A stretch of 64,000 nt of DNA, taken from contig CM082587.2 of NCBI GenBank assembly GCA_040954595.2, forward strand, positions 7,987,705 through 8,051,704, read 5' to 3'. Position numbers and translations under genes: made by a program. Below, in pieces: positions 28,149 to 55,363 of the stretch. The notes under the pieces were generated by a model that saw nothing but the letters and a program-made list of their open reading frames with translations, did not search any database and was not told the DNA's origin. Position 1 is the stretch's first letter, and each line of letters begins with the position of its first letter. Origin of the DNA: Balanoglossus misakiensis (lineage: Eukaryota > Animalia > Hemichordata).

Positions 28149-31100
28149 TCACTCGATATGGTTTTTCATTTCATTTTCACCACCATTCTCCGTGAGCACT
28201 TCCGCGGTTAAATTCCGGATCACTTCCCAGGCAAACTGGATATCCTTGGATGAGGTCTGTGCGGCACACACTGCAAACCGAAGGAAGTAAGTTTCTCCCA
28301 CCTGGGATGGCACCAAGTGAATTTTTCCACTGTCGTTGATTTTCTTTAGAAGTTTCTTGGTGATCTCATTGGAACCCTGTACATTCATGTATGGGATATA
28401 AACTTTTACAGAATACATGTAGGTATAGACTACCAGCAGAATAAAAAGAATTGGTGCTATCACTATATGTATATAATTTCTGTCAACAATTATACCTACC
28501 AATTCTTAATATGTCATTTAACCCTGCTCACTTGATGACCGCAGATAATTTTAACTCATAGAATATCCCATGACCCAATGGAACATTTGTGTTCTTTGGC
28601 AATTTTGGCTACCTTAACCCTTTCACCCCCAGTTCCCTCTTTAGTGGTCCAACCCTCCCATAGAAGACAATATGTTTGGACTGAACCATGGTGGTGAAAG
28701 TGTTAAACAGGTTTTTGCTACCTAGGTGAGTGATGAAAATCTCATATCGTCGACACTATAGATGGCCGAGTTTTGCAAAGTTTAAGAAAGTAATACTGGG
28801 TCATTCTGAAAATTGTAACAGAAAAAAATAACAAAATGTGAAAATAAACATGAATGAGTTTAATATGCTGACTACAAAGGCAGAAATTGACCTTTTAGTT
28901 ACCCAGAATGCAATAGTCATAATGGTATTTGATCCCCTAGCACAAAGTAAAATCCTATTTAAGGTAGATTTGGAACTTTTTTCCGTCATGCAAACTTCCA
29001 CCATAAAATAATTCTTCTTGGTTCCCTTTAGGGATATAAAATGTAGGGTTGTTGGGACCATTAAAACATGTCACAGTGGAAACACCCATCTATTTGCTAA
29101 TTACCTTAAGTCTGAGACACACCAATCCCATGATAACTTCTGCAACAATCTCAAAGCGTTGATCTGATTTCACCAGCTGTTCAAATTCATGTGCCAGGCA
29201 TACGTGCTGGTTTTTAAAACAAACAATACAATTAATCAGCATAGGTATATGGAAATGTTAAATGATAATGTTGGAATACTCAATTATGCTACATTATGTA
29301 GAAGACAAACAAACTGGTATGTATGCTAGTTTCTTCCTTTACAAACACTGTCACTGCAGCTGTGATGTACCTTCAAGGGTAGTGGCCATGCATCACTATT
29401 ATTTACATGTACCTTTCTTATTCCTTCTTGAAGCTGCTTAACACCAAACAGTCTTAGAACAAACCATAACTTCAGTGATCTAAATCTCCTGCCTAGTGGT
29501 ATCTGCCAATGCTGTGAAAGAAATTAAATATTGTGTCTTAAAATCTGGTAGTGTTTCTATGATATACAGTGGAGTTGGGGGGGAACACAGCTAGAAGCTG
29601 CTGGGATACTCAATTTTGGGTAGGGGTGAGCAGCCCGTCTGACTGAAACCAGCTATCAGCTTCTAAAAACCAAACTCATAGAATTTGACCCACTCCTAAA
29701 TTGTTACCATCATTCATGTTACTATCACAATCTCATGCGAATAAAGGATAGTCGGTTCAAACGTGACCCTGACCTGCATGTTAATTCCTGAAGCAAAACT
29801 ACCCTAACATCAACAATAAGTAAACACACACAGAAGAAGCTGGTATGAGAAAGTTCACTTACTCGGAAATCTGTGACCCTGGATTCATTTTCGTGTTTCA
29901 AGAACAGCGGGTCGACATAGAAGGCATATTCTATGTCAGCGCGGTCTTGCACCCACATTGCCGAACAGTCAAAATTCACTTGTAGCCACTTGTGGGGGTT
30001 GAAATCAAATGACTGAGCAAACTGTGTATCAGAAAAAGGATTTGATAGTATGAATACAGTCAATGCCAAACAGCAAAATCAACATTTTCATATGTGTACA
30101 GTGAAACCTGTCATTACGGACATCTCTGTAATCAGGAAATGTATTTTCTGGTCCCTGAGGATTCCTTAATAGACAGGTTTCACTTTCACAGTATGCATGC
30201 AACAAGTGTACCAGCCAGTGTTGTGTGGCGCCTATCTCAGCATCAATCATGAGGCTAAGGCTATAAGTCAATCCATAATCCAAATTATGCAGTTCCACTT
30301 AATCCAGTATCCCATTAATCCCATCGCTTCTCAGTCTTTTAAAAATAAATAAACCTATAAATGTTCGTGCAGAATAACGTACCTCAACACCATCCAACAA
30401 ATGTCTGAATTCTGGGCAAATAAAGGCACTTCCTGCATAAGCGGCATCAATGTGCAACCAAACATCTTCCTCCTTGCCTATAAAAAGCATTTGGAAAATT
30501 AAAAGATATAAAATCAATTATGTTAGCTTGTATTCTTATCTAAATCTGCTTTCAGTATTCACCCGTCAGAATTAATTTTCCCGTTCTCTTATTTGTACTG
30601 GAAAGTTATCTCCGAAAAACATTTTACGCGACTTTTTTATATTCACATATTTTTGGCACTCGCGTATTTCGCGAAAATTTATTGCTCGCGAAAATAACCC
30701 GTTGTACAGTAGTTTCCAATAAAATAAAATGAGTAAACTTACAGACTTGACCGACTTCTTTAATATTATCAAAGGCACAGGTTGATGTGGTTCCAAGGGT
30801 GGCACAGACCTTTTGAGAAATGGGTGGGTAAAACATCAATTACAACTTTGAGATGTGTGGGGTTGACAGAAACTTTACTAAACCTATGAAAAATAATATC
30901 ATAAACAGTATACTGTCATACGGCCTATGTTTCTACTGAGCTATTGCTTTTGATGCAAGATGCAATAATACAACAATCATGGACAGACAATACATAAATT
31001 ACCCTAGGCAACCAACAAAGGAATTGGGAATAATGACTTTGTCCCACCGGAATAGATTTATAAAACACCTGGAAAAATGTGATTTTTGAAGAAAATTTCC

Positions 31101-33874
31101 GCAAAATTTCAGAACATAATGACTGTGTATGAACTCCTGAGCTATTACACTGTTGATTGTATCACATTGAGACACAAATTAACATGCATAAGAATTACCA
31201 ATTGAAAGTATATTGTCTCTATATCATTTCTGAGCATGATAGACAGTCTCCTCGGCCAATGGGGATCAAAGTACAAATCGACAAAACAAGAAACTTACAA
31301 AGAATGGAGTCAAACCACTAGCCCTGTCTTTTCTCATAGCTTCTTTCAGTGCATCTCCTCGCATGGAGTAACTGTCATCGCAAGGTACCATCCTCATCTT
31401 GACAGAGCCAATCAAACCAGCTCGTTCTATTGACGAGTGTGCCTTGGAAAATTTGAATAAAACAATGATACGACTCATCACTGTGTGTATATTCATTTGT
31501 AAATTCATTTTCTGAACATTGGTGATTGCAGCTGCAAGCAAGCTGAGTTCTTTAACTGCCATTCTTCATTTGCTAGCAAGACAAAAGACCAAGACCAATA
31601 AATGCAACAAATCTCGTGATGGTCCGTATTTTAACTCGTTGCTTCGCAACTTGTTAAAATACTGCAGACACATCACTCGATACGACGCGTTATCGACCAC
31701 ACTTCATGTAATAACCCCTAAGTACTGAGTATATAAGCATGCTGTATGGAGTAGAACAAGATATAGCATTTAGTAGATTAAATATGCGATCATCATCTCA
31801 AGAAAGATAAATGTTCAAAAATGATTTTTTAATTCCCACTTTACCTGATCTGATGTATAGGCAACTAAGGTGGACAAGATTTTATACTCATCCAAAGTGG
31901 CGTCTTTGGATTTCATTTGGTTAATTTTCTTGGTTCTGGCAGCAAGGAGTGCCATTGCAGTGGCTTCACTTGCAGTGCCCTTTATAACAGGAGAAATGTG
32001 TGATGGTTTGTCAATAATTTCTAATAAGATATTAAGAATACTGAAAGTGGTGCAGTACACTGTGTTACCACCTGTTTTTACAAGTCTGATTAACACATAG
32101 AACTGAAAAAAATATGACATTGAGATCACAAAATAGTTTTGGATATCTAAATATTTACAAAGATCTTGAATTATTTGAATTTTGATAATTCTTTACTATC
32201 AATCACATGATCTGGCCATGTGACCCAAGGCGTAATTGTCATTTTCAGATGACGGGCAAGCAATATTTCGGCATCCAGCAAAAGTTTTTCAGAGTATGTT
32301 TTTACTTTAGAACCGCCAAACACGTAACATGTATCAGGTATGGTGCCTCATCAGCCTCATTGCATTTCGTCTGCACAGTCTTTGTCTTGCACCACATTGC
32401 TGAAGTTGCCCGTCATCTGGAAATTTGAATGCCAACGTAACTGCGTCTGAGCGCGTCTGACGTCATTTGATATTGAAGAATTAATTGTTACCTGTATGAC
32501 CCCGCCACCTTTTCCTCCTTCGCTGACGATGAAGTCTTTCGGAAGTTTCAGCATCTTGGCTAGCCAGTCCATCATGACAATCTCCAGTTCTGTACACGCA
32601 GGACTAGCAGCCTGCGAAGAATTCATTAAATCCTTAAAATTATTTTTCCAACTTAAGCTGTGATTAGCATGTAAAATATGGCCAACACTGACTTGTGAAG
32701 TCATTAACTGCAGTTTAGGGTAGATGGCTACCCAGATACAGCACATGGCTATCACATTCCATAGTCTTACTCTGAGAATTTTTTTGAAAAATATTGTCAT
32801 TAATTTCTTGAAATTTTCACAAACGGTGCTAAAACAGAAATGCCATTAAATGATATAAAGAAACAGTAACACAATTTCATCGTGCTTGATTTTTTTTGAT
32901 AGAGCTGTTCAGAACATTTCACCATTGGGAAACTATAGCATTATGAATGCCAGAAAAGTGCTGACTCAGCATTTTCCATAATATTCTAGACCCCCTAACA
33001 GAAACAGTACCATGGGAACACTCGTTTTCTCTTTATCTTTGTATTTAAAATTCATTGATATACAATGTATATAAAAATGAGGAAAATATCAAGAATCTCA
33101 ATTTTGAGTAGACCACTACCCAGCCACTATAAGGCAGATTTGATGAAATCAACCACGAAATATATGTGGCAATGGGGCAGATATTGACACTGCAAAAAGA
33201 TGTCAAATGGGGCGAGCTGGTAAATTATAATGCATAACCTTTGTTTCAAACATCAGTGCTTCATAAAAACTCGTAAATGTGCATCCCCAACTGAGCTGAA
33301 ACACCTTCACTACAAGAGCTAGGTCTCCTATATTATGATTTAATATTACTCACCCAGTTGAAACCGATGCATCCAATACCATCCGATAAAATATCACCAA
33401 CAATCGCAGGGAAGGAATTTCCGGTTGGATAAAACGCATGAAAGTGTGGGCTGTGCCAGTGTGATACCTGAAATAGAAGTTAAACAGGTTTGTTTGTTTT
33501 TTTCATTAAAGATTACATGCGTATAAGTGCTCTTCATATCTTGGAACACGGTCCCTCCAGACAAGTATGTGATGCGAGCCGCCAGCATTAATCAACAAGA
33601 CCCTGAAACAGAGTTCCTGAAAGTGACTAAAAAGAATACAGTGACAGTCACTGCTGGCTACTTATCTCACCCCGGGCATTATAACTCTCTCAACATCCGC
33701 GAAAACATCTTCCCACTTGTCAGGGTCTTCGGGAGCGGCGTCGGGAACCAGTTTGCTGAGATAGCCGGGCTGGACTTGAGATAATGGCGGTCGCTCCTCG
33801 ATGTTGTCCAAGTAATCGGCGACATAGTCGATCATTGCCTTCCCCCACTTACGGAAATTATTGGAATCCGCCAT
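28149..33874 (-). CDS. DDC: Aromatic-L-amino-acid decarboxylase-like paralog 1 (~488 aa); candidate aromatic acetaldehyde synthase (Y332F, F79-Y80)
   Basis: Coding exons 33874-33671, 33467-33354, 32611-32492, 31979-31845, 31442-31299, 30809-30743, 30477-30383, 30021-29863, 29511-29413, 29206-29105, 28376-28149. All are GT-AG, in phase and free of stops. Motifs: [33 protein letters not shown] (PLP lysine), [14 protein letters not shown]. Confidence 0.93.
28618..28702. mobile_element. Short piggyBac-like MITE in intron 10 of DDC paralog 1
   Basis: ttaa|ccctttcacc...ggtgaaagtg|ttaa: TTAA TSD and CCC terminus. Confidence 0.7.
30570..30709. mobile_element. Truncated TA-flanked MITE of the 16721/23255 family
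   Basis: Right end tgctcgcgaaaataacccgttgtacag|ta is present; left TIR not found. Confidence 0.55.
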
Positions 33875-34170: not shown

Positions 34171-36341
34171 GGCTACGAAGAACCAAATGGCAAACCACAG
34201 TGATCGACGGCCGCAAGATTGTAAAATGTAAAATGGAATTAATCATAAGAATACAAATCTATTCATTCAATAGGAAAACGGCACAGCATATTCGCAAGCT
34301 AGTTTACGGCGACTCGACCTACATGACCTTAAAAAGCTTGGTGACTCTTAGAACTTGCTTCATTTAGGTCACTGAACTAACTCGCTTAAAAAGATTACAT
34401 AAAGTTTGTTGAGATGCTACTAGAGAACATGGAGGCACGATGAGGCAAATACTGAAGAGAAACGCTGAAAATTTGATGGATTGCTGACGGAATAAAAGCA
34501 CAAGTTATTACTTACTCTGACATCCACCAACGCGACGCTCTCCACATGCAACTGTTCTGTCAGTATGACCGCAGTTGTGGTCACGCTCTGTCGACAGTGC
34601 ATGTGAGGTCATGACCTTAAAGATTATTGTCAATTGTGCCCTGGGGTAAAAGGTTACGACAGACACACATAGACATCATGCCGTAAAACGCCTAGTTACA
34701 AAAGAAGTTACGCCCATGTGCACCTGCGACTCCTAGATCCTTTCGTTTGCAATTATGTACTTGCTAATTTACATATTTAATTAGTAAACGTAAGTTGAAA
34801 AAATTGTACTCTTGTTTTACCTAATTGCAAATTGCTGCTTGTTTTTCATGAAACTGGCTGTAACAATTTCATATAGATTGGAAAGTACTGTATAGAGAAA
34901 CTGAAAGTTTCTAATTAATACACTGGATATTTGGGTAAATATTAAACTGGTATAATTTCGGTGATCTGTCGAGCATAGTATTGACGCTCAGACGAGAACT
35001 ACCGTCCCGGGTTGTATGTACCGGTATTTTTCCCTTTTGCCGGCAGGTACAATTACTATTGTCAGACTAACGAAACAGTTTTCACGTGCACAGGCGATAT
35101 ATTATACGAATGGTTCTTCATTTTGACACAAACAAAGTACACCGTTTGTTTACCAGACTGTTTAGGCCTACACCGACGAATCATCCAGATTGTTCTGAAA
35201 AGGTCGGCGATTTTCCGAACGTCGATCGTCACCTGTTCATGAATTCGGGAATAGGACTTCAAAATTACTTTCGCCTTTAGCCTATGCAACTTTGTGTGAT
35301 TGAAGAAAGTAAACGGGCTGAATACAGACGTTATGATAAAACCATTACAGGCGTCGCCTTAGTGCTGACCGCATTTTCTCGTTTAACCGACTTTTTAGCT
35401 TGTGCTAACACTCCTTATCCCTGACCGATTTAATCAGTTAAACAACAAGAAGATCAAAGTTCAAATCAAATGTTCGAAGTTCAATGTCCCTCGATCCGTT
35501 CACTATAATCCGCATTATAGTAATACCGTACAACGGGAAATTTTCGCGAACTTGGCGAGAGCCCCCCAAAAAATTATGAGCCGAACTCATTAGTGAAAGC
35601 AGTGGCGGTAACCTGTTCCCATGTACTATATACACTGCCGAAAGGCCGTTTCTATACTGCCGATCATTTTCACACTGTTTCCGCCGATAAACGAGGTGCA
35701 GTGCCGAAGAACGATTTCCGTACAATTGATCGTTTTCAAACTTGGGGTGTGAAACGACAGAGAATACCCCACGTGCAATTTCCGCAGACAATGTTCGCGT
35801 ACCCCTTTCACACCTTTAGCAGTTTTTCGAAGGCTGATCATGGGTCTCTCATACGTTTATATGTTTGGTACATTTGTATTTTTTTCTGAAGACTATTATA
35901 GTTATTTGAATACTTACTCAAATTAATAAACGTTTTACTTTTCCAGAGATGAGGGTCAGATCGACCAGGGTGTACCTGTTGGGGGTGGGGGTGGGTCGGG
36001 GCTATTTTGTGATGGTCGAGTTGTTGGGGGCCGAGCTGTCTGGATATCGTCAATGTAGATACTGTTAATACATCTCATAGACCATATAATAATATAAGAA
36101 TATCCCACATCGTCACCCTGTCTTATCGGCTGTGTAAACCTGCAACATCCAAATATTTTAATTTCCTGCCGGTGACTCACCGACTTCACTCATCTGTTTT
36201 CAATTCTGCTCAGCTCTCAGAAATTTTCGAGAAGATTAAAACACCTCCTAGGTAGCAGTAACGCGCTGGACCTGCATGCAGTGTGAGTCATTTATCTGTT
36301 GCAACGTAGATCGGTCACATTGAAAGGTAGTTTTCATACCG

Positions 36342-36550: not shown

Positions 36551-36814
36551 GATCATTTTCACACTTAAAGTCAGTGTGAAACGACTGACCAACCCCCACA
36601 TGCCTTTTCCACCGACAAAGTATTTATGTATTTCACACCTTATGAAATAAATAGGGTGGATTTTTCGATTGCTGGTCATTGGTCTCTTGGCCTTCTGAGA
36701 TTGACGTCTTCCTAGCGCTGTCTCTCTGTTCCGTAAATTCACACAAATACATTTATACGTTTGGATTTTTTTCTAATGTACTACAAAATCAGTTCAGTCA
36801 ATATTTGTTTCGAC

Positions 36815-38179: not shown

Positions 38180-41100
38180 TTAATGTATATGTACATGGTT
38201 TTCGACAGAGTTAGCATGACCATTCTCCGAGAGAACTTCGGCCGTTAAATTCTGGATCACTTCCCAGGCGAACTGGACATCCTTGGAGGTGGTCCGAGTG
38301 GCACACACGGCAAATCGGAGGATGTACTTCTCTCGTAATTTTGAAGGCACCAAATGGATTTGTCCACCGTCGTTGATTTTCTTCAGAAGTTTCTCGTTGG
38401 TCTCATTGCAACCCTGGACATTGACGAGATTATGTAGTGTGAATTGTAAACTATTTACATTACTACAGGACCTTGTGATGAATTGTCAAGTTTGTACATT
38501 AGGTATCTTTGCTTTAAAAGTACCTGGTACAACATAGCGCCAGACTAAATTGAAATTCAACGAATACATCTGAGATAGTTTTTATTTATTGCAGGAGAGT
38601 TGGCCTAGAGACATTTGGAGTCGGTGGGCCACATACAAGATATCGTCCTGGCTCAACCAGGGTATCTAGTTGGACGCGTACGCCCACCTGTTACTTTGTC
38701 ACTCTCAAATAAGTATACTTTTTCATTTACAGCACATGACATTTTACAAGATGTTGCCAATGGAAACTGCCTCACCTTGAGCCTGAAACACACCAATCCC
38801 ATGATCACCTCTGTAACTATTTCAAACCGTGGGTCTGTTTTCACCAGTTCTTCAAACTCATGTGCCAGTCGTACTTGCTGGATTAAAACAAACCACAGAA
38901 GCATTACCAGAAAATTGGCGGGAAAACTAACATTGGTGGCACACTTTTTGTAGTTCTGAAGATATTTTGTGGCTTAACCAAAGCGTATGTGCAGTGCAGC
39001 TATGCAACCCTATGGTACCCAGTTTTGTCTGATAAAGACGTCTATATATAAATCGTGTCCATCCAAAAAAACACCCGTGTACACCCAGCTGCATTTAAAC
39101 TTCGCCCGGCGAGAGACACCCCGCCCCCTAAACATGCAGACAACTTAACACACTACTATCATGTTAAGTTAGGTTTTTTGCTTTGACACTACACATCATG
39201 TTCACATCCAGCGAATCATTTGTGACAGTTGGGGTTGTAGGTTATAAATGTATGCTCACCTCTCTAATTCCGTCTTGAAGTTGCTTAACACCAAACATTC
39301 TTAGAACAAACCATAGCTTCATTGATCTAAATCTCCTGCCTAGTGGTATCTGCCAGTGCTATCAATTAAATAAAATGTTGCCTAAGTCCAGATCTTGTAC
39401 AGTCCTCAAAATATAATCAGGGAGGGTGAGATGAGCGTTGGGTCGGAGGGAGTTCTTTTGTGGACGAAACATAACACGACCATACACATTGTCACACAAT
39501 GCCTTACAACATAACTTATACAGAGGTAACTACAACATAAAAAAGGGTACGGTCAAATGCAAAGTCGCTTGAACGTAACTGAGAAAAAATCTCCACTTCG
39601 AATCCAATGTGACATGTTTCACTTACTCGAAAATCTGTGACCTTGGATTGATTTTCATGTTTCAAGTACAAAGGGTCGACGTTGAAGGCGTCGGCTATGT
39701 CTGCACGGTCTTGAATCCACAGCGCCGAACAATCGAAGTTAACTTGGAGCCACTTGTGGGGATTGAAATTGAATGACTGGGCAAACTGTTTATATGAAAA
39801 GAAAACACACACATACGGTACGTTAGGGTTGATACAGCGGTCGTTGTGTGAAAGTCTTTTTATCACAATATATTAGGCCCTGGAGCAAAGAGAAGCACTT
39901 AAACATGGTTGATACGGCAGCCATATTTAGGTTACGGTTATGGATATGACGTGGACACTTTGTAAGATATGATTAACAAGGCCCTGTCCGTTGATAACGA
40001 ACACGCTTTACGACTCAATAAATGTGAATTTTCAATCACAACGTCTCATAAGCCCTATTGGCGTTATGGCACAACCATTGTATTCGTGTTATCTTAGTAT
40101 TTTGCACATGATAAGTTAAATCATTTCTTATTCAGCAAACAAAGCTACACCACACTTACCTCAACACCATCCAACAAATGTCTAAATTCTGGGCAAATAA
40201 AGGCACTTCCGGCATAAGCAGCATCAATGTGCAACCAAACATCTTCCTCCTTACCTTCAAATAGATTAGACGAAATAAAATTCTCCAGTGTACATTCAAA
40301 CTAGTTCGTTCTCAAGTAACTTCAGTTGTTCCTGAATAAATGTTACATCAGAGAAAACACTACGATGTTGGGAATGGCAAGAATTGTTACGCATCAACGC
40401 ATTAAATATCAGAGATACGTTATGGCGAATAGTGGTCCGAGCGACGGTGAACTTACAGACTTGACCGATTTCCTTGAGATTGTCAAAGGCGCAGCTGGGC
40501 GTGGTCCCAAGAGTTGAACAAACCTGTTGGTATAAAAGTTGGAATCTGTGAGCAAATGATTGTAGCAATTCACTTCAGATAGTTTATTCCGAAAAATCAC
40601 CATTTTCCATTCAAAATACATTACGCGATTTTGTGACTAAATCTAGATTTGTTAATAACAATGGCTGGAAGACATGAGACATTGTACGTGGTCTGTTGTC
40701 CACCGTTTCCACAATGAACTGGTTTCAACGATCGAAAGTGTTTGTATGCGAGTTTATGCTTTGGTACAGATACAGTGTAAGAAAATTCGTTTTTTTTCCG
40801 TGGGAAGAATACTATTTCGCTCCGACAATAGGGAAGTCCTTTATTACTGAGGAAAACTTACAAAGAATGGTGTCAGACCACTAGCTCTGTCGGTCCGTAT
40901 GGCTTCTTTCAATGCATCGCCTCGCATGACGTAATTGTCATCGCTTGGTACCAGCCTCATTTTGACGCAGCCAATCAGACCAGCTCGTTCTACCGATGAA
41001 TGAGCCTTCAAAAGGAAATACAACGCCATTATGAAATGTGTCGCGCGCGTGTCGATTCCTATACAATACGGGTGTAATAGGTCAATGATTGCAAAATAAC

Positions 41101-44100
41101 TCCGTTTATGATATGAAAATTGTCAGCATCCCACCTTTCTACACTGTGGTCAAAACTTTCAGTCCGCTGTTTCCATTATGTACAAGAAAACGCTTCATCT
41201 CAACAGTCATTGTATAATTAAATCTCAACACGATGGCCCTGGGCAGTTTTTTATTGATTTTTGTTAAATATTTGTTACTATTTCAGAAATAACAATCTCC
41301 CACCTACCTGATCTGATGTGTAGGCGACTAAAGTTGACATTATTTTACAATCATCATCCATATCAACATTTTCAGATTTTATTCGTCGAATTCTCCTGGT
41401 TCTGGCGGCAAGTAGGGATACCAACGTGGCTTCACTGGCGGTGCCCTAATTAAGGTGAAAAGTATCAAACTGTATTATTTTTTAAGGGACAAAGTCTCTC
41501 TCCTACTCCCTTTTTTCCTGTGAATTATGTTTGATACAAGACACCATTAATGAAATTCTACATGTGGGTGAATCAACGTTCGACCACACACAACTGCCAC
41601 CCTGTTTGTAGAATATGAGAGTAAAAATCTTGCCAAAATGAATAAACGGTAGAGACTGAGTATTCACTTTGGCGAGTTTGAGGGCAGCGAGAGGGAGTTG
41701 TTGTGAGGAGGGGAGGTTAAAAAGGGGATACAAAAATTGCATAATTTCCTCGTATTCCTTTATAACTGTCAACATCCTTCATTTGAATATATGTCGTCAC
41801 AATGTACGTCATCACTGACAAAGACCATCACCTGTATGACCCCGCCACCTTTTCCTCCTTCGCTGACAATGAAGTCTTTCGGCAGTTTCAGCATCTTGGC
41901 TAGCCAGTCCATCATGACGATCTCCAGTTCTGTACAGGCAGGACTAGCAGCCTGCGAAGAAAATAGTTAAACCAGTAACAGTTGTGTTCAATTACACGTA
42001 TTAATTATTAAGATTATGATTCATACACAAATAACTGTACGACGGGCACACAGAACATTTGCCTTATTCAGAAATGTCTATAGGATACACCAATGGCCTT
42101 TTGATTCATTGGAAATACATATGATTAGTATGAGATGGAGTAAGTGCGTGATTCAGTGGAGGCAAAATTGCAAAATGTGCAAACAATGGATATCTAATGG
42201 TCATCCAGTCACTAGTGCTTCCCATCTGTACTGCAATGACTGAGACCACTGAGGTCACATGGTAAAACAGTGACACTTGGCGCTTTTCCTCCACAATGCA
42301 CTAATTTGAAGCCATACACATTCATTTTTGTCTTTGATTTGAGCGAAAACGGGTTACTTGTGTATAACCATTATCCATTGACAATACTCTACTACCTCTA
42401 CCGGTACTGTCTATGGTATAACCAACCTTACAGGACACATATGCAAAAATCACCTAAGAACAGCGCCCTCGCCAAAGCTACGGCCACCTGTTGATCATGT
42501 ACTCACCCAGTTAAAACCAATGCAACCAATGGCATCGGATAAAATGTCAGCAATAATCGCTGGGAAAGAATTTCCAGTCGGGAAATAGGCATGGAAGTGA
42601 GGGTTGTGCCAGTGCGTCACCTAAAATATAAAATATAAAGGTTATACAGGAATTTCACTGTACATTTGTATTTAAGAGGTATAAATCTCTTCAAAGGTGA
42701 CAGTCTATTTTATGTCATACAATGAGTAAACGTCATTCATTGAGTGGTGTGCTGTGCGAGTAAATACACACAGAATTGCGCTCCAAATGTACTGTTTTAA
42801 TTATTGAACACTACGTCAATGCCAGGCTATGGCTATGCATCTCTATGCAAAGCCAACAATCTGAATAATAACCCATGTGATTCTGCAAAGACAGTATTAC
42901 CGGTATCATTATAGGCCTATAGTGTTCATGTTATCGTTAAATTATTTTGCCCAGAAGGCGATCACTCTGAAATTGCTCGCTGTTGCAACATGGCCGCTTA
43001 AGGTTCGATGACTGGTTGACAGGACAAGCGAATACTCTATTATTGATTTAATCATTTTGAATGCAATGTCGTATGTCTTGCAGTATTGTCGCTACATAAG
43101 ATGTACTTGTTGAATGTATATAAAACACTACCGATTATACACGAAGAAACAAGATGTATTACAGACAAAATCATGCCAAATTCCCCGTGCCTCCATCACG
43201 GCCCCATTTGGGAATAGAAACTTCCTACATGCTGCATTTTCTGAAAACGTACTTCAAATGAAAAACATCAAAAGCCGAGGAGTATCGGTAATCATCGAAC
43301 CTTGCTATATCGGATTTGTCATACAATTTCATCCCAAGTCTAAATTAGTCATTAAGATTCTTACTGTTACTATAGTGACGTGTACACTCGAACGATTCGA
43401 GTATTCGTTGAACTAATTTACTTAACGTGTATGTGCGTGCGTGCTCTGTTGAATGGCCATTACAAATCTGGGTTGCTGTCAAAATATCTTTCGTTTCGTT
43501 AGTGTCATTTTCCTTGCAGATAACATTAAAGATAAAATCCTCATTCAATTCAATATTGGCAGACAAAGGCATCCGTTCGTTAAATTCATATCGACGAGCC
43601 TGACATATGTATTTTATAACAAGAATGTCAAAACTTAAGAAATCTATACACATCCCTACGGCAGGTTGAGTACGTGGTGTATTGTCTAAATGTGGTGTCA
43701 TTTTATTATGACCCGTGCACGACTAAACAATGCCACAGCAACGATAAGCCGACCCACCACGCCGTAACCATGGCATTACCGCCAGCATATACACAGCTAT
43801 GAACGGAATATATTTCCTTTGTCCCCATGGTTACAATCAACGACTTCTGGTATTTGCGAAAAGCCATTATTAGCTCATAAAAGACATACTGTGTGTTTGA
43901 ATGACTGGGTGATGGGGCGGACGCACACAGTCTGAATGGGTGACGTCATCATTCATTGAGATGACCATAGAGCTACTCATGATGCCAACATTTCGTGCGC
44001 ATGAATCACAGCGACGCGGAAATATTGAAGATTTAATTTTAAATAGACCGGATTAATTATAAAGATTGCCAAGTCACGAATAAGTGGTAGATCAGCGGCG

Positions 44101-47100
44101 ACATAAACGTAATGGATTGATACAAGGGTCAACACAATCATAAAGTACTGAATGTTTACCAGAATACAGTGTACATACATATCCCCATTCAAAATATGAC
44201 TTTGAAGTATCGAACATTAGCACACTACGTTTTCTTTGACGAACTGTCAGTTCAATATCTTAACTCAAATACTCAGAGAGAAGCTAGCTTGAAACGGAAA
44301 TGGTCAATTAAATGGCGGAGCTAATTACTGTCGCATGATTGTTCTGACCTGGGATTGCTTTTATGCTAAATAACCAATATCACGCCAATTTGTGGAGATG
44401 GGATTACTAGCAACAATTTCTCTTATTAGGGGCACAAGCCTATCGGGCTTGTGCCCCTATTGGTATTGTTGGAATTTTTACGGGCCCAAGCCAAGCCAGG
44501 CTTGGGCCCGTATTGGTTTCGTTGGGGTTTTTACGGGCCCAAGCCAAGCCAGGCTTGGGCCCGTATTGGTTTCGTTGGGGTTTTTCTTTCTTTCTTTCTT
44601 TCTTTATTCTTGGTTCATTTCTTTCGCGCTCTAGATCTCAGACACCGCTGCAGGTACAGTTCTCAAACTTGCTACAGTGGTCAAGGTCAATGAGTAGATG
44701 TGCAGTGACTTGTGAATACTTAATTAGTCACGTGACATGGCGGCCATATTGGATTTTCTGAAAAAATGCAAATCTCAGATCTCAGAAACTACAAGTCAGA
44801 TCGACTTCAGATTTGGCGTGCTGGTAGTATACCCTCTGCCCATCATTTTTGTAATTGGATATTTTGCTGTCAATGTTGCAGTTTTTTTGCTACAGTTGTT
44901 TTTCTGAAATCTGGTCAAAATTTCAAAAATCTTCTTCTCCAGAACCGGCGATAACCGAGTCACGCCGTTTGGGGTATGTGGTCACCTAACTGATGTCTAT
45001 CAAGTTTGCGAAGATCATTGTGATTGGTCAAAGATTATGGCGGCCATATTGGATTTTCGTAAAACCCTAGTAAAACTTCAAAAATCTTCTTCTCAAGAAC
45101 CGGCGATAACCGAGTCACAAGATTTGGTGTGTGTGGTCATTAAACAGATGTCTATCAAGTTTGCGAAGAGGAATGTGATTGGTCGAAGATTATGGCGGCC
45201 ATATTGGATTTTGTGAAAAACGATTAAAAAGTAAAAATTCCCTTTCTAGCCTAAAAATTGATAGCACAGAAATTCTTTTTATGGATATGAATCATCATAT
45301 GACAAGAATAAGCTATGAATATTTTGGTAATTTTGGCAATGACCTTTGACCTACTTTTGACGCATGATTTTTCTGCATATCTAATTCCAGGCTAACCAAT
45401 AGGGCTATAAGTTTGGTTTTTGATGTATGTCGATTTGTATGTGATCCAAAAATTTTGCTACTTTTCATGACCCCTTTGACCTCTGCTGACCTCATTAAAT
45501 ATGTACATACCTAATTACAGATGAACCAATAGACCTAGAGGTTTTGTTTTTGTTATACATGGACCAGTATGGGGTCAAAATATTTTGCCCAAATGTTGGG
45601 TGACCTCAGGTGACCTTTGACCTACTTTTGCATATCTCGACATCCACAGCAGATACAGCCTTGGCGTTTGGAGGTATGGGGCCATAATGAAAAGCCAAAG
45701 TTTTGGGTCACCTGTGACACCTGCTTAACTCATTAATTATGTGCATACCTAATTATAGGCTAACCAAAAGGGCTAGAGGTCTGGTTTTTGTTGGACATGG
45801 ACCACTATGGATTAAAATTTTCTGCCCAAATGTTGGGTGACCTCTGGGTGACCTTTGACCTACTTAACACTTTATCAGCACCAAACATAGATATAACCTT
45901 GATATTTCATGGGATAGAACAGCATTATGTTTCTACTCATTAATTATGTGCATATCTAATATCAGATCAGATAATAGAGCTTGGGCCCGGACAATGCTGC
46001 TTGCAGCTTTAATTCTTTCTTTCTTTCTTTATTCTTGGTTCATTTCTTTCGCGCTCTAGATCTCAGACACCGCTGCAGGTACAGTTCTCAAACTTGCTAC
46101 AGTGGTCAAGGTCAATGAGTAGATGTGCAGTGACTTGTGAATACTTAATTAGTCACGTGACATGGCGGCCATATTGGATTTTCTGAAAAAATGCAAATCT
46201 CAGATCTCAGAAACTACAAGTCAGATCGACTTCAGATTTGGCGTGCTGGTAGTATACCCTCTGCCCATCATTTTTGTAATTGGATATTTTGCTGTCAATG
46301 TTGCAGTTTTTTTGCTACAGTTGTTTTTCTGAAATCTGGTCAAAATTTCAAAAATCTTCTTCTCCAGAACCGGCGATAACCGAGTCACGCCGTTTGGGTT
46401 ATGTGGTCACCTAACTGATGTCTATCAAGTTTGCGAAGATCATTGTGATTGGTCAAAGATTATGGCGGCCATATTGAATTTTCGAATAACCATAGTAAAA
46501 CTTAAAAAATCTTCTCCTCCAGAACGGGCGATAACCGAGTCACAAGATTTGGTGTGTGTGGTCATTAAACGGATGTCTATCAAGTTTGCGAAGGGGAATG
46601 TGATTGGTTGAAGATTATGGCGGCCATATTGGATTTTGTGAAAAACGATTAAAAAGTAAAAATTCCTTTTCTAGCCTAAAAATTGATAGCACAGAAATTC
46701 TTTTTATGGATATGAATCATCATATGACAAGAATAAGCTATAAATATTTTTGTAATTTTGGCAATGACCTTTGACCTACTTTTGACGAATCATTTTTCTG
46801 CATATCTAATTCCAGGCTAACCAATAGGGCTATAAGTTTGGTTTTTGATGTATGTGGATTTGTATGTGATCAAAACATTTTGCTACTTTTCATGACCCCT
46901 TTGACCTCTGGTGACCTCATTAAATATGCGCATACCTAATTAATGATGAACCAATAGACCTAGAGGTTTTGTTTTTGTTATACATGGACCAGTATGGGGT
47001 CAAAATATTTTTCCCAAATGTTGGGTGACCTCGGGTGACCTTTGACCTACTTAACACTATATTAGCATCAGATCAGATAATAGAGCTTGGGCCCGGACAA

Positions 47101-50100
47101 TGCTGCTTGCAGCTTTAATTACGGGCCCAAGCCAAGCCAGGCTTGGGCCCGTATTGGTTTCGTTGGGGTTTTTAGGGCCCAAGCCCAGCAGGCTTGGGCC
47201 CTATTGGTATTACTGGGGTTTTTCTTCTACTTCTTCTTCTTTTTCTTCTTCTGTCATTTTCTTTGGCGAGGTAGATCTGGAAAACTGCTAAACCTACCAA
47301 TTTCAAACTTGGCACAATGGTGCAGGCCAATGAGAGCTAGTGCAGTACCCTTGTGAATGTTTAATTAGTCACGTGACCCGATGACCATATATGGGCAAAA
47401 TTTTCAAATCCGCCTTATTTGCATATGAATGGAGATATCACAATTCTTTTAGCAACTTTTGCGGACCATGTGGTCAGTGTCCTACATGCCAAATGTCAAG
47501 GCCATTGGCCATGCCAATTTTGAGAAGAAGATTTTTAAGTATTATTTTCCATATTTTTTGACCAAGCCATGGGCCTATACTTTACATAGTAAAGCTATGA
47601 CCACATATTATTTTGGATAAATATGCATACATATCTCAAAATCTGTTAGGCCGATCATCTCCAACTTTGGTGTGCAGCAAGCCTAGCATTTGTCAATAAT
47701 TTTAAGCAGAAAAAAATAATATGAAAAATCGACAGATTTTTTTATATTAATTTGTTTATTAAATTTATACCTTTGCTTATACCTCTATGGTTAAGCTATG
47801 TCCATGTCTTATTGTGGAATTCTGGTCAGTGCGATAGTCCTGTACAGTGAGTGTCTATTGGTCAGTGAGCACAATGGCACCAAAATAAAAGGCAAAATTT
47901 TAGGCTCACCTGTAACACCTGCTTAACTCATTAATTATGTGCATACCTAATTCTGGGCTAACTAAGAGGGCTAGATGTTTCGTTCTTGTGGGACATGGAC
48001 CAGTATAGGGCCAACATTTCTTGCCCAAATTTGGGGTGAACTCAGGTGACCTTTGACCTACTTTCCTATATCTCGGCATCCAGAGCAGGTACAGACTTGG
48101 CGTTTGGAGGGTTGGGACTAAAGTTGAAAAGCCAAAATAGGGGTCACCTGTGACACCTGCATATCTCATTAATTATGTGCATACCTAATTCCAGGCTAAC
48201 CAATAGGGCTATAGGTTTTGTTTTTGTTGAACATGGACCAGTACAGGGTCAAAATTTCTTGCCCAAATTTTGCATGACCTCAGGTGACCTTTGACCTACT
48301 TTACCAGATCTTGGCATCGAGAGCAGGTACAGACTTGGCGTTTGGAGGGTTGGGACTAAAATTGAAAAGCCAAATTGGGGGGTCACCTGTGACACCTGCC
48401 TACCTCATTAATTATGTGCATACCTAATTCCAGGCTAACCAATAGGGCTATAGGTTTGGTTTTTGATGAACATGGACCAGTATAGGGTCAAAATTTCTCG
48501 CCCAAATTTTGCATGACCTCAGGTGACCTTTGACCTACTTTTCCATATCTTGGCATCCAGAGCAGATATGCTTATTGCTATGTTGCTATGTGCTATGTTG
48601 GCTTGGGCCCGCCATTGCTGCTTGCAGCTATATTTCTTTCTTTCTTTATTCTTGGTTCATTTCTTTCGCGCTCTAGATCTCAGACACCGCTGCAGGTACA
48701 GTTCTCAAACTTGCTACAGTGGTCAAGGTCAATGAGTAGATGTGCAGTGACTTGTGAATACTTAATTAGTCACGTGACATGGCGGCCATATTGGATTTTC
48801 TGAAAAAATGCAAATCTCAGATCTCAGAAACTACAAGTCAGATCGACTTCAGATTTGGCGTGCTGTTTGTATACCCTCTGCCCATCATTTTTGTAATTGG
48901 ATATTTTGCTGTCAATGTTGCAGTTTTTTTGCTACAGTTGTTTTTCTGAAATCTGGTCAAAATTTCAAAAATCTTCTTCTCCAGAACCGGCGATAACCGA
49001 GTCACGCCGTTTGGGTTATGTGGTCACCTAACTGATGTCTATCAAGTTTGCGAAGATCATTGTGATTGGTCAAAGATTATGGCGGCCATATTGAATTTTC
49101 GAAAAACCATAGTAAAACTTCAAAAATCTTCTCCTCCAGAACGGGCGATAACCGAGTCACAAGATTTGGTGTGTGTGGTCATTAAACGGATGTCTATCAA
49201 GTTTGCGAAGGGGAATGTGATTGGTTGAAGATTATGGCGGCCATATTGGATTTTGTGAAAAACGATTAAAAAGTAAAAATTCCTTTTCTAGCCTAAAAAT
49301 TGATAGCACAGAAATTATTTTTATGGATATGAATCATCATATGACAAGAATAAGCTATAAATATTTTTGTAATTTTGGCAATGACCTTTGACCTACTTTT
49401 GACGAATCATTTTTCTGCATATCTAATTCCAGGCTAACCAATAGGGCTATAAGTTTGGTTTTTGATGTATGTGGATTTGTATGTGATCAAAACATTTTGC
49501 TACTTTTCATGACCCCTTTGACCTCTGGTGACCTCATTAAATATGCGCATACCTAATTAATGATGAACCAATAGACCTAGAGGTTTTGTTTTTGTTATAC
49601 ATGGACCAGTATGGGGTCAAAATATTTTGCCCAAATGTTGGGTGACCTCGGGTGACCTTTGACCTACTTAACACTATATTAGCATCAGATCAGATAATAG
49701 AGCTTGGGCCCGGACAATGCTGCTTGCAGCTTTAATTCTTATTATTATTATTCTTCTTCTTCCGAGAAATATGTCATTGTACATCTGGAAAACCGCAGCA
49801 CCTAGGGGGCTGAAACTTGGTAGGGTGGTAGGGGCCAATGAGTAGATGTGCAGTGGCTCGTGAATATTTAATTAGTCACGTGACCTGGCGGCCATATTGG
49901 ATTTCCTGAAAATGGTTAAACGAGTCCTTCTCAAAAACCACTGGGCCTATCGAGTTCAAATTTGGTGTCCAGGTAGCCTACCTTCTGTCCATCATTTTAC
50001 CCCCTTGAAATCATGACGTCACACATAAAGTTTTTTTGCTACAATTTTTTTTCTGAAAAACTACTTAAAACTTTAAAAATCTTCTTCTCCAGAACCAGCG

Positions 50101-53100
50101 GTTACCGAGTCACGGGATTTGGGATATGTGGTCACCTAACCTATGTCTATCAAGTTTGCGAGGCGCACTGTGATTGGTCAATCATTATGGCGGCCATGTT
50201 GGATTTTCGGAAAACCATTGAAAAATGAAAATTCCGTTTAGTAGCCAAAATGTTGACATCACGTAAATTCTTTTTTTGGATATGAGTCATCATATGACCG
50301 GAAGTTGTCACAATTTTTCGGGGCAATTTTCACATGACCTTTGACCCAGTTTTAAAACAACTAATTATATATGCATATTCCCCATACCGTCTCTTGTAAA
50401 AGCACCACAGTCATGAATCTTGTGGACAGGGGTACCAATGCTGCCAGGACATTTCACAAATATTTTGGTAATTTTGGCAATGACCTTTGACCTATTTCTG
50501 ACACATCATTTTTCTGCATACCTAATTCCATGCTAACCAATAGGGCTAGAGATCTGGTATTGGTTTGACATGGTCCACTCTGGGGTCAAAATTTTATGCC
50601 CTAATTTTGGGTGACCTTGGGAGACCTTTGATCTACTTTTCCATATCTCAGCAACCAGAGCAGTTAGAGCCCTGGCTTTTATGGTTTAGCACATAATGGA
50701 GTCTTACACAAGACCTCATTAATTATGCGCATACCTAATTGCAGGCGAACCAATGGGGCTAGGGGTCTGGTTTTTTGTTGGATCTAGATTAGTATGGGAC
50801 CCAATTTTTTTGCCAAATTTTGGGGTGACCTCAGGTGACCTACTTTCCCATAACTTGGTATCCCCAGCAGATACAGCCTTGGCACTTGCTGGTCACCATG
50901 GGAACCGCTTGTGCCCCGCCAACGCTGCTTGCAGCTTTAATTTCTTTCTTGGACCTGGTAATTAGCTTAAATTCAATTATATTGATTATTGGACCTCATT
51001 TGAAGTCTTATTGTAATGCACATGTCACGATAATTCATTAACCGTGTACATTTCAAAACGCATAATTGTATGAGAGGAGGATGGGTGTACGGGGAAAGAA
51101 CATCGCTGTACAGAACACTTGATTTATTTTTGGTTGTGCACATTCAGAAACGTTTAATGTTTCTCACAGTAGGAACTTATAAATCTTTCTATATATTCTT
51201 TTGGCAATTTACTTATACTGTCAGTGTGATGCTGGAAAAAATTCGCTACTTTCCGTGGCTTCATCGCATTTCTATCATTTATTACCCAATGATTTGAATG
51301 TGCAACACACACAAAATGTTTCTACGTGCGAAAATGCCAACTTTTCAGTTAGAATTACTAAGCATGGCTAGGGGGCCGGGAAGTTAGCACCACTGTGGAA
51401 ATTCTTGTTTTTCCAAACATTGCCTGAGGACCATCGTCGCATAAAAAGAAACAGTGGGCGTTGTGGGTGGTTGTATCTACTTGTCAATGTATTTCAACAT
51501 CAAATACCCCGAAGTAGGAAAGTGGTTTATACTTCAGTCGCGTTTGATGAGTGCTCTAGGGGGGCCAATGATGGGGTGGGTCGCCACACAGTCTTTCTGC
51601 ATCACGTAGTTTTACTCTAACATACCCGAATCTTGGGTGATGTAGCTAAACTTCAGAAAACAATATCTGAGGGTAAACCCAGACGACCTAGGCATTAGAT
51701 GAAAAATTACAGACAGGATGCACTGCGAGAAAATGTTGCATTTAGATAGCAGACCAATAGAGAAAGACAGAATACAGCACTGACAGAGTACAGCCTATAT
51801 TATATGAAATATTATATGAAGCTGGGTGAAGGAGAAGAAAGCTCGCATGCATCCATCACCTCGCATCACCCCAACCGCTCCAACAAACAACACCACACCC
51901 ATCCACTCCGTGAGTCTGGGTTGCGTGTGATAAGGCACAACCTTGGGTGAGCTACTCGAGCGCATGTGTTTAGCGATTGTGGTATTCTATAACATTGCAT
52001 TGCGCAATTAAGTTTGATTAAATCAATGACGTCACATCTACAAAGGTAATGATAAATTACCGCTTATTGGGCTACAACATAAAACATAGTTATTAGCTCT
52101 ATGAATAGGGTCTGTATACAAACACACATCGCCCGACTTGGTTTACTAAATTATTTTATTATATTGGACATTCCCACGCTTTCATGCCTAGGTTATTAAT
52201 CTAAATCGTTGAACGTTTAAATTGAGATTTGGACCTGCAGCAATGCTAAAGTTCAGTAGAATTCCATGGAATCTATTTCCCACCCACTTCTCATTCGACT
52301 TAATGATTGCCGCCGGGCATCGTATATTACTGTGAAAATTCGCCTCATACTGTTGATGTCAAACATCGTTAAATTCACACCACTATAAATTTCACTTAAA
52401 GGTATACGGTCACCTCCAATTTACATACAGCCATATATAGTTGAAATGGCGTATTTGAGTGTTCTAAAGAACACTTTATTTTCGCGTGTGCCACCCACTG
52501 AAAATCTGTGATTGGTTAGATCTCAATTTACCATGGTAACTGTGGCTAAATTTGTATAGGTGACCGTATACCTTTAACTATCGAGCATTGTCATCGCACC
52601 ATAATTATACAATCAAATCAAATCAAAGTTGATGTTTCATGTTTGCATTGGCAGTCCTTCCAAATACCTCGCCACAGCATGGAATGATGTTTGCCCTATT
52701 ACCCAAATATTAAAACGGTTCTTCGGGGGGGGGGGGGGTAACTATAAATCTTTGAAGTTTAATCTGTTATTGAAACGATCCGGGCAAACATGTGTAACTT
52801 TCACGCTTGTAATGTACATCTAATAAGGCTGACTTGTTGAAGTTTCGCACAATTCTATGAAACCGGTGTTGAATATTGACAGCTGATCAGTAACTTCTCA
52901 CATGCACATACAAATGCTGTACCAATGCAGAATGTGGTAGGTTACGTGTTTAAAGATATCAATACAACTGTTCGATAGCAGTCAAGACTTAATCAATTAA
53001 ACAAGTTATGTAAGATACTTAAAGCCAATCATTGACCCTCTTCTTATAATACCGTTAAAGTCATATTTGTAGACGCATCCGTATTTATAGACGCGCCCCT

Positions 53101-55363
53101 TTTCTGAGCTGATTGCAATGTCACAAATTCAAAGATTTGGAAAAACGGAAAAGTACATATTATTAGACGCACCCTGCTTTCAGCATGGTGGAGGACAAGC
53201 CCCCTTTCATTCAATGCAGAAGACTGACTAACAGAAGACTGACTAACAGTGATTTTCTTTGCCATTGTTTCAACTACGTCTTTTCCATTGTCTCAACTGC
53301 CCATAATTGCTGGGTCGAAAGTGATTAATGTGCGGGTTGCGGGCTGCGGGTTGCGGGCTGCAGGCTGACAATGAATAAAAATAAAATCAGAATAAAAATC
53401 GCAGCGATGATCGAATGCATCTCTGTGTCACGTTGTGGTTGTGAAATGATCTGATATTAAATGCTGATATGTTCGGATCGACATGGTTTCCATGCAGATT
53501 ACTCCCATGGACAGCTAGCTGCAGGCAAACCCCATTCTATATCGTGTAGTTGCAACGACCCGACTTGTGTAGGGACATTTGAACGGCAACAGAAAGCAAA
53601 GTGAGCGTAATTCAATAAAACGACCTATACAAGCCTGAACTCTGATTATTTCTGGTCCCAAAACTCATTTCGTGAAAAACTCACTGGACTCAGTGTTTAC
53701 GTATTTCAGCGAGTACTACCGCTGGAAGTGACTGGGATTATGGCTGATTAATTTATGCTAATGAGGCCGCGCACACAGTAGTGAGTGTGAGGGTCAAAGT
53801 CCGCTGCCGGAGTTGTGGCGCAAATCGCGTAAATTGAACTTCTGGGAGGCAATCATTTGATCGTTTCTGTTGACATATAATATTATTATTCTTTCATTAT
53901 CAAAACACAACTATATTTTACGACCCGCAATCGGCGACCCGCAACCCGCAGCCCGCAACCCGCAATTTAACGCTTCCCTGCTGGGTCTACGTCTTTTCCA
54001 TTGTCTCAGTTGCCTATAATTGCTCAGCTGGTCAACGCAACGTCCATGAAACATGCATGAAATTAACATATGAATACACTAGAAATTATGAAAGGGAAGC
54101 GTTAAATTGCGGGTTGCGGGCTGCCGGTTGCGGGTCGCCGATTGCGGGTCGTAAAATATAGTTGTGTTTTGATAATGAAAGAATAATAATATTATATGTC
54201 AACAGAAACGATCAAATGATTGCCTCCCAGAAGTTCAATTTGCGCCACAACTCCGGCAGCGGACTTTGACCCTCACACTCACTACTGTGTGCGCGGCCTC
54301 ATTAGCATAAATTAATCGGCCATAATCCCAGTCACTTCCAGCGGTAGTACTCGCTGAAATACGTAAACACTGAGTCCAGTGAGTTTTTCACGAAATGAGT
54401 TTTGGGACCAGAAATAATCAGAGTTCAGGCTTGTATAGGTCGTTTTATTGAATTACGCTCACTTTGCTTTCTGTTGCCGTTCAAATGTCCCTACACAAGT
54501 CGGGTCGTTGCAACTACACGATATAGAATGGGGTTTGCCTGCAGCTAGCTGTCCATGGGAGTAATCTGCATGGAAACCATGTCGATCCGAACATATCAGC
54601 ATTTAATATCAGATCATTTCACAACCACAACGTGACACAGAGATGCATTCGATCATCGCTGCGATTTTTATTCTGATTTTATTTTTATTCATTGTCAGCC
54701 TGCAGCCCGCAACCCGCAGCCCGCAACCCGCACATTAATCACTTTCGACCCAGCAATTATGGGCAGTTGAGACAATGGAAAAGACGTAGTTGAAACAATG
54801 GCAAAGAAAATCACTGTTAGTCAGTCTTCTGTTAGTCAGTCTTCTGCATTGAATGAAAGGGGGCTTGTCCTCCACCATGCTGAAAGCAGGGTGCGTCTAA
54901 TAATATGTACTTTTCCGTTTTTCCAAATCTTTGAATTTGTGACATTGCAATCAGCTCAGAAAAGGGGTGCGTCTATAAATACGGATTGGTCTACAAATAT
55001 GACTTTAACGGTAAGCTGGAGCATTTTGTCTTTGAATGTCACAGTACATTTGCGCCTGTTCACGATTGCCAACTCAACGATTGTCCCAATGCATATTGAT
55101 TGCCACACAGATACAGGGCGACGGTGAACGCAAATAGACCAGTATAAAAATCCACTCACCCCTGGCATTATAACTCTCTCAACATCCGCGAAAACATCTT
55201 CCCACTTGTCAGGGTCTTCGGGAGCGGCGTCGGGAACCAGTTTACTGAGGTAGCCGGGCTGGACTTGAGATAATGGCGGTCGCTCCTCGATGTTGTCCAA
55301 GTAATCGGCGACATAGTCGATCATTGCCTTCCCCCACTTACGGAAATCGTTGGAATCAACCAT
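38180..55363 (-). CDS. DDC: Aromatic-L-amino-acid (DOPA) decarboxylase paralog 2, canonical (~491 aa)
   Basis: Coding exons 55363-55160, 42620-42507, 41951-41832, 41445-41308, 41005-40862, 40523-40457, 40254-40160, 39785-39627, 39358-39260, 38877-38776, 38413-38180 (TAA). Canonical motifs: AYFP (Y79-F80), AHSSVER (H192), [17 protein letters not shown] (Y332), PLGRRFR (G354). Confidence 0.93.
44424..50942 (+). mobile_element. Nested stack of five non-autonomous Helentron-like (HINE/DINE-1-type) elements in DDC-2 intron 1
   Basis: Heads consist of a subTIR plus a nearby inverted copy (ggggcacaagc..gcttgtgcccc; cgggcccaagc..gcttgggcccg) followed by a T/CT-rich tract. Tails consist of the matching subTIR plus a gctgc-tt-gcagc stem-loop and end in T-rich sequence. 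No TSD. Superfamily assignment is from structure only. Confidence 0.75.
52400..52573. mobile_element. Kolobok-like MITE
   Basis: ttaa|aggtatacggtcacct...aggtgaccgtatacct|ttaa; near-identical to 10201-10375. Confidence 0.85.
53052..55011. repeat. Long inverted repeat (arms ~920 bp, spacer ~115 bp); TA-flanked fold-back element
   Basis: 53052-53978 is the near-perfect reverse complement of 54094-55011; ends ta|ccgttaaagtc...gactttaacgg|ta. The same 73-aa spurious ORF appears on both strands. Confidence 0.92.
53317..53978. mobile_element. Mutator-like non-autonomous element with 9-bp TSD; second copy inverted at 54094-54746
   Basis: TIRs contain (gcgggtt/gcgggct) repeats; the element is flanked by tgctgggtc at 53308-53316 and 53979-53987. 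Confidence 0.75.

Follow-up and report, generated by a model that had tools for sequence, protein, structure and literature searches.

The window analysed here, a 64,000-nucleotide stretch of contig CM082587.2 of the acorn worm Balanoglossus misakiensis (Hemichordata; GenBank assembly GCA_040954595.2, positions 7,987,705 to 8,051,704), contains two tandem DDC genes, both on the minus strand, whose models we assembled exon by exon. One, P1, carries an exchanged catalytic residue; the other, P2, is its canonical neighbour. Judged from its sequence, P1 is probably a neofunctionalised aromatic acetaldehyde synthase (AAS), a prediction that we make with good, though not full, confidence. The features of P1 are given below, with 3,4-dihydroxyphenylacetaldehyde abbreviated to DHPAA, its synthase to DHPAAS and pyridoxal phosphate to PLP.

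28149..33874, minus strand: P1, intact DDC-derived gene of 11 coding exons and 488 amino acids; predicted AAS.
33874-33671, 33467-33354, 32611-32492, 31979-31845, 31442-31299 and 30809-30743, minus strand: P1 exons 1-6.
30477-30383, 30021-29863, 29511-29413, 29206-29105 and 28376-28149, minus strand: P1 exons 7-11.
33429..33434, minus strand: TTT (33434-33432) and TAT (33431-33429), Phe80-Tyr81 of P1, Phe79-Tyr80 in DDC numbering; order reversed, as is typical of insect DHPAAS.
31437..31439, minus strand: CAC, His193 of P1, equivalent to DDC His192, in the motif AHSS; the Asn of insect DHPAAS is absent here.
29989..29991, minus strand: AAG, Lys304 of P1, PLP-binding, equivalent to DDC Lys303, in the NPHKW motif.
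29902..29904, minus strand: TTC, Phe333 of P1, equivalent to mammalian DDC Tyr332 in the large catalytic loop; plant-AAS-type switch, in VDPLFLKH of exon 8.

The reading frame of P1 has no internal stop, all ten introns are GT-AG, and the exons match those of P2 one by one. A first-pass annotation of this DNA had described the frame as intact, PLP lysine included, apart from a TTC codon (29904-29902) where P2 has TAC (39668-39666); both the description and the positions proved correct. It had also equated the resulting Phe with mammalian Tyr332. Aligned to the pig and human DDC structures, exon 8 runs from residue 293 to this Phe with no gap before the site, which places it at Tyr332 (DDC numbering is used from here on), and it scores 67 bits on mammalian DDC compared with at most 39 on plant structures. 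The corresponding features of P2 are as follows.

38180..55363, minus strand: P2, canonical DDC paralog (Tyr79-Phe80-His192-Tyr332) of 11 coding exons and 491 amino acids.
55363-55160 (exon 1) and within 42620-38180 (exons 2-11), minus strand: P2 exons.
39666..39668, minus strand: TAC of P2, Tyr332-equivalent, in VDPLYLKH; the P2 contig, at its loose end, shows the Tyr codon too.

We compared the two proteins, aligned with 133 homologs, at 26 positions of the active site and loops (rat DDC numbering). Exactly three differed: 79, 80 and 332. The numbering of Phe79-Tyr80 was verified on PDB chains. All of the PLP-site residues (Lys303, His302, Asn300, Asp271, His192 and Thr246) are retained in P1, its pocket (W71, T82, I101, F103, L353 and G354) is the same as in canonical DDC, and Val328 and Pro330 are identical to those of P2, Pro330 being the DDC-type residue; further alterations adjoin Thr246 and His192. 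P1 thus lacks two features of canonical amine-forming DDC, Tyr332 and the Tyr79-Phe80 order, and has the pair of residues that defines the Tyr-to-Phe class of AAS in sequence, Phe332 in the large loop with His192 kept in the small loop. The first-pass annotation had rightly seen that P1 keeps His192 instead of the insect Asn and had called the switch plant-style; P1 is not purely of that style, as it also has the Phe79-Tyr80 order typical of insect DHPAAS, which that annotation had overlooked. Overall, P1 is 83% identical to P2, 77% to the DDC of Ptychodera flava and 61% to rat DDC. Upstream of the coding exons, a non-coding 5' exon may lie at about 34515-34620 (minus strand), with GTAAGT as a donor-like site close to 34515 and, immediately before the ATG, an acceptor-like AG.

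A search of public sequencing runs listed three, all of them DNA and none RNA, from one sample of one study that is possibly the source of the assembly; two contain at least half of the query words, and the haplotype check covers exon 8. Run X1 yielded two contigs here, one exact (depth 25.6) and one that differs at 11 places (depth 20.9), and run X2 yielded this second, 11-difference haplotype at a depth of 155.8. Both haplotype contigs cover 29902-29904 with no change listed there, so the codon that the first-pass annotation had wanted confirmed in sequencing data is unchanged in both. The 11 differences fall within about 175 bases; nine were placed inside the exon and all nine are synonymous (the other two were not placeable), which would occur by chance with P = 4e-7 if about a fifth of sites are synonymous and P = 2e-5 at 30%. 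Because two haplotypes keep TTC and all nine listed exon-8 differences are synonymous, the codon does not look like an assembly error. That it is an error or a rare allele has a negligible probability: all of the contigs come from the single sample and study just described, but TTC stands in both of these well-separated haplotypes and P1 carries another, separate aldehyde-synthase motif. The contigs show two haplotypes of one sample, not a population. A third paralog is the less likely source of the second haplotype, because the X1 contigs share a bubble (29863-30074), common flanks and similar depth. We also considered and rejected the second haplotype as a product of conversion by P2, since its seven P2-matching synonymous sites alternate with adjacent non-matching ones.

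Score-ranked protein searches (18 matches, the best 120 of 7753 and the best 120 of 6118) gave 177 distinct proteins, with Tyr at site 332 in 175 and Phe in 2; among these listed near homologs, the P1 change therefore hits a nearly invariant position. The first Phe332 homolog, Glandiceps talaboti XP_077985070.1 (P0034; annotated decarboxylase-like), has Phe79, Tyr80, Asn192 and Phe332, that is, all four aldehyde-synthase marks, and is the only one of the 177 with Phe79-Tyr80 (first matched stretch counted). The second, Owenia fusiformis CAH1792590.1 (P0117; annotated as unnamed), has Tyr79, Phe80, His192 and Phe332 and a more altered loop. Each of the three Phe332 proteins is accompanied by a canonical paralog in its own species: P2, P0019 in Glandiceps and P0046 in Owenia. 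No close ortholog of the Glandiceps protein in other hemichordates appeared within the best 120 matches of its search. In 149 further cluster representatives, site 332 was Tyr in 118, Phe in 9, a gap in 9, another residue in 8 and uncovered in 5. Because these homolog lists follow score rank, they may pass over divergent Phe332 paralogs of animals and give no basis for a frequency. By pairwise alignment, Phe also occupies the Tyr332-equivalent position of AAAD-like (aromatic amino acid decarboxylase-like) proteins of a green alga (P0210, Volvox) and two fungi (P0214, Dimargaris; P0241, Violaceomyces), which belong to the six of those nine Phe representatives that we looked up. A divergent AADC-like protein of the limpet Lottia gigantea (ESO97540.1, P0159) has Phe79-Tyr80, His192 and the PLP lysine and no catalytic-loop Tyr; from its sequence it is possibly a further non-canonical enzyme.

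The 82 differences between P1 and P2 were polarised on P. flava. Fifty-six were derived in P1 and 15 in P2, with 11 ambiguous (P = 1e-6), a rate in P1 of 3.7 times that in P2. The pairwise ratio of nonsynonymous to synonymous divergence (dN/dS) was 0.15 at a dS of about 0.56-0.74. In these sequences, the 56-versus-15 asymmetry together with the low dN/dS fits a new function under constraint. Among 186 positions shared with P2 and conserved to 90% or more, a count that leaves out three atypical homologs, P1 was altered at 11, which include 3 of the 4 known switch sites (hypergeometric P = 6e-4, or about 0.008 by hand without site 332; the test is partly post hoc, as 332 selected the gene). Such rates could also arise if relaxed selection were acting on P1 as a duplicate that has weakened or fallen silent, with Tyr332Phe as a loss of function that is tolerated. 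The faster change in P1, the single base change that suffices to turn Tyr into Phe, the lack of a Phe332 ortholog among the P. flava matches listed and the loss of measurable kinetics in a Drosophila mutant (see below) all point that way. We nevertheless regard this as quite unlikely, given that stops, frameshifts and broken splice sites are all absent, that dN/dS is low at this synonymous distance, that the nine placed allelic differences in exon 8 are all synonymous, and that the changes, which recur in Glandiceps, cluster at known switch sites.

The papers of Bertoldi (2002) and Torrens-Spence (2013) are reportedly the original accounts of the loop-tyrosine switch. According to the sources cited here and below, the loop Tyr protonates the quinonoid formed after decarboxylation, with help from His192, and when Phe takes its place O2 attacks instead, giving aldehyde, ammonia and H2O2 (PMC11308512, PMC6411801). 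For plant enzymes the switch has been shown in both directions by exchange of loop Tyr and Phe (PMC11308512, PMC6411801, 10.1101/404970). Pig DDC Y332F formed 3,4-dihydroxyphenylacetaldehyde (there abbreviated DOPAL) together with ammonia but did not form any amine (PMC7497351), PsTyDC Y350F in yeast gave tyrosol only, exclusively by the aldehyde route (10.1101/404970), and human histidine decarboxylase (HDC) was likewise converted by Tyr-to-Phe (PMC11308512). The first-pass suggestion that Tyr332Phe makes P1 an aldehyde synthase agrees with these three mutants, the activity itself being predicted. The Phe79-Tyr80 reversal is common, not universal, in insect DHPAA synthases (PMC6494836; also PMC12078590). 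When it was reverted in Bombyx DHPAAS, aldehyde fell from a share of 95% to one of 67%, and on a His192 background from 22% to 5.9% (PMC6494836 Table 1); into other enzymes it was moved jointly with Asn192 (PMC8927377).

On this basis, decarboxylation by P1 would yield the quinonoid, which would escape protonation because the Tyr332 hydroxyl is missing; O2 would attack it, the adduct would decay to aldehyde, NH3 and H2O2, and Phe79-Tyr80 would push towards aldehyde as well. The likely overall reaction is thus the conversion of an aromatic amino acid and O2 to aldehyde, CO2, NH3 and H2O2, with amine not formed. P2 would retain the neurotransmitter role, which would have freed P1 for a new function. 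With less certainty, L-DOPA or tyrosine is the most likely substrate, because W71, T82, I101, F103, L353 and G354 are unchanged and Gly354 has been linked to DOPA specificity; 5-hydroxytryptophan (5-HTP) is possible. It is very improbable that P1 is oxidative and instead acts on another substrate (Tyr or Trp in halogenated form, or an amino acid that is not aromatic) or forms another oxidised product. Enteropneusts contain bromophenols and haloindoles whose origin is described as unestablished (PMC6315191), and the P1 changes adjoining Thr246 and His192 would suit such a shift, but the main pocket is that of canonical DDC.

Several points weigh against an aldehyde-synthase function of P1. In Drosophila DHPAAS, an Asn192 enzyme, Y332F reduced formation of H2O2 and DHPAA to undeterminable kinetics without a gain in amine (PMC13651850); Phe332 can therefore simply cripple an insect-type enzyme, which bears most on the Asn192/Phe332 protein of Glandiceps. 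Enzymes switched by engineering are slow, as in the case of CrTDC Y348F, which runs about 17-fold below the parent decarboxylase (PMC6411801), and no test of the combination of Phe79-Tyr80, His192 and Phe332 was found in the literature. Relaxed selection also yields faster change in P1, and the neighbouring sites 79 and 80 do not count as independent. The haplotype check covers exon 8, whereas Phe79-Tyr80 lies in exon 2. Finally, the first-pass annotation had proposed looking for the codon in related species; Phe332 recurs in the Glandiceps and Owenia paralogs, but no Phe332 paralog of P. flava or Saccoglossus kowalevskii is among the matches listed, and the trait is accordingly patchy.

We also weighed whether P1 still forms amine, or is bifunctional, with an altered substrate range and with His192 or the new Tyr80 as proton donor. 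This would accord with the retained His192, to which insect work assigns the protonation (PMC6411801), and with Val328 and Pro330 being as in P2, the latter of DDC type. It is nonetheless improbable, as pig DDC and PsTyDC, which keep the His, lost amine formation by Tyr-to-Phe alone, and as Phe79-Tyr80 promotes aldehyde rather than amine in Bombyx DHPAAS.

We placed P1 in a quick tree of 47 rows and in careful trees of 19 rows, none with a plant row. P1 and P2 were sisters (support 100/99), joined next by P. flava DDC (87/90) inside a hemichordate group (94/95), as would be expected of a ptychoderid-like acorn worm. P1 nested among deuterostome DDCs, not in the plant AAAD clade (in trees without plant rows), and outside the insect clade, far from P0039, the sole insect protein with Asn192 among the rows of the tree. 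By descent P1 is, on these sequences, an animal DDC and belongs to neither the plant AAS nor the insect DHPAAS clade; its placement supports the earlier proposal of an origin independent of both. The Owenia Phe332 protein was sister to its own canonical paralog, P0046 (100/100), as a recent duplicate. Approximately unbiased (AU) tests rejected a clade of P1 with the Glandiceps protein, both on all columns (P = 1.3e-5) and on seven less-converted exons minus the switch columns (P = 0.001), as well as the union of the three Phe332 proteins in a single clade (P = 1.9e-6). Because the AU tests reject these joint clades and the Owenia protein pairs with its own paralog, three separate origins of Phe332 (in P1, Glandiceps and Owenia) are the best reading.

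Synonymous divergence between P1 and P2 was uneven, with a proportion of synonymous differences (pS) of 0.12-0.19 in exons 1, 3, 7 and 9 compared with 0.42-0.67 (chi-square 49.3, df 10, P = 3.6e-7), which indicates gene conversion between the two genes. The low-pS stretches (33671-33874 versus 55160-55363, and exons 3, 7 and 9) fit conversion that spared the switch exons 2 and 8. Given such conversion, and since exon 2 of P1 is about equally near the Glandiceps paralog (30/38 matches) and P2 (31/38), Phe79-Tyr80 could be old and shared. This evidence concerns origin, not function: P1 and the Glandiceps Phe332 gene might share an old aldehyde synthase of hemichordates as their single ancestor, with the apparent youth of P1 an artefact of conversion by P2 that overwrote most of the gene and spared the switch residues. 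Taken jointly, these two propositions are unlikely though not far-fetched. The unevenness and exon 2 speak for them; the AU rejections on all columns and on the less-converted exons, the P2-like exon 8 (44/53 matches, versus 33/53 to Glandiceps) and the His192 of P1, where Glandiceps has Asn, speak against.

P1 can be compared with several enzyme groups. Plant AAS (AtPAAS, Rr4HPAAS and petunia/rose PAAS) are Group II PLP decarboxylases with Phe at the Tyr332 site, His192 kept, a canonical AAAD paralog as ancestor and an identical predicted reaction; P1 differs in having arisen within the animal DDC clade as sister to P2, in its extra Phe79-Tyr80 and in that its activity is predicted. Insect DHPAA synthase (amd) and sawfly PonAAS2 resemble P1 as animal DDC duplicates with an identical predicted reaction, and P1 has Phe79-Tyr80 in common with the DHPAAS of Bombyx, Aedes and Apis (PMC6494836, PMC12078590). 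In contrast to the His192 and Phe332 of P1, however, the insect enzymes have Asn192 and Tyr332 (PMC10380194), the latter being required in Drosophila DHPAAS, and they have Arg330 where P1 has Pro330 (PMC13651850); P1 is not in the insect amd clade. Engineered pig DDC Y332F shares the identical substitution on an animal DDC background with His192, but is a laboratory mutant, whereas P1 occurs naturally, in two haplotypes, and has more active-site changes. Canonical DDC/AADC (P2 and P. flava P0001) has the same PLP site and pocket, and P2 also the same exon structure; unlike it, P1 is without the catalytic Tyr332 and the Tyr79-Phe80 order. The Glandiceps protein shares Phe332, Phe79-Tyr80 and possession of a canonical paralog with P1 and differs by its separate branch and Asn192, while the Owenia protein shares Phe332 and a canonical paralog and differs by its separate branch, Tyr79-Phe80 and more altered loop.

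In the literature found, aldehyde-synthase activity in animals is described for insects only and is Asn192-based. According to PMC10380194, every insect AAS and AAAD studied has Tyr at 332, and PMC13651850 describes DHPAAS as confined to insects. A literature search without most subscription papers and supplementary alignments found no report of a natural animal Phe332 enzyme; P1 itself is, on sequence, not unique among animals, as the Glandiceps and Owenia paralogs also have Phe332. If P1 acts as predicted, it would show, with the parallel cases in the acorn worm Glandiceps and the annelid Owenia, that animals too use the plant route and that active sites have converged across plants, insects and marine worms. 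A broader reading, which we hold tentatively and at somewhat less than even confidence, is that marine burrowing or tube-dwelling worms repeatedly (at least three times) made aldehyde synthases from DDC duplicates via Tyr332Phe, twice adding Phe79-Tyr80; PLP-oxygen chemistry would then have a third route, hybrid in kind, which could be the first host-encoded step, supplying aldehyde and H2O2, to mucus cross-linking or the halogenated aromatics of acorn worms. Were such repeated origins true, the view of aldehyde synthases as insect-specific among animals would end.

Enteropneusts have mucus-lined burrows and haloaromatics, for which PMC6315191 states host versus symbiont origin to be unsettled. 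We speculate that the product of P1 could serve as a cross-linker of mucus or burrow lining, or as an entry to defensive aromatic chemistry, and, equally speculatively, that an aldehyde together with H2O2 would lend itself to cross-linking or halogenation. Against such uses, a Pfam scan of the 133 stop-to-stop frames of at least 72 amino acids outside the DDC exon blocks of the window, a scan that short exons would escape, revealed no pathway gene cluster or tailoring enzyme, and neither P. flava nor Saccoglossus has a listed Phe332 paralog. Whether acorn worms themselves produce their aromatic defence compounds is a question for which P1 offers a host gene that can be tested. With 83% identity, P1 and P2 are also a natural pair in which to study the control of amine or aldehyde output by residues 79, 80, 192 and 332. 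In alkaloid engineering, P1 may be of use as a source of DOPAL or 4-hydroxyphenylacetaldehyde (4-HPAA).

P2 is 85% identical to P. flava DDC (P0001). Its 12.5-kb first intron (42621-55159) is filled with nested repeats, including near-identical copies of about 1.1 kb at 44588-49737 and tandem units of 155 and 238 bases. Between P1 and P2, a frame at 36737-37411 (plus strand) has a CxxC zinc-ribbon and no Pfam match, and is presumably transposase-like. In the scan of the window, 4 of the 133 frames had Pfam matches: EGF-like, FAM124, P2 exon 1 and EPTP. Exons of a gene at about 200-3700 (plus strand) encode EGF-like and likely transmembrane segments, with sub-threshold Pfam EGF matches; the gene resembles von Willebrand D/EGF-domain proteins. 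An open frame at 23397-24236 (plus strand) has a FAM124 domain (PF15067, E = 8e-15), and a 371-amino-acid open frame at 59452-60564 (minus strand) has an EPTP repeat (PF03736, E = 6e-11).

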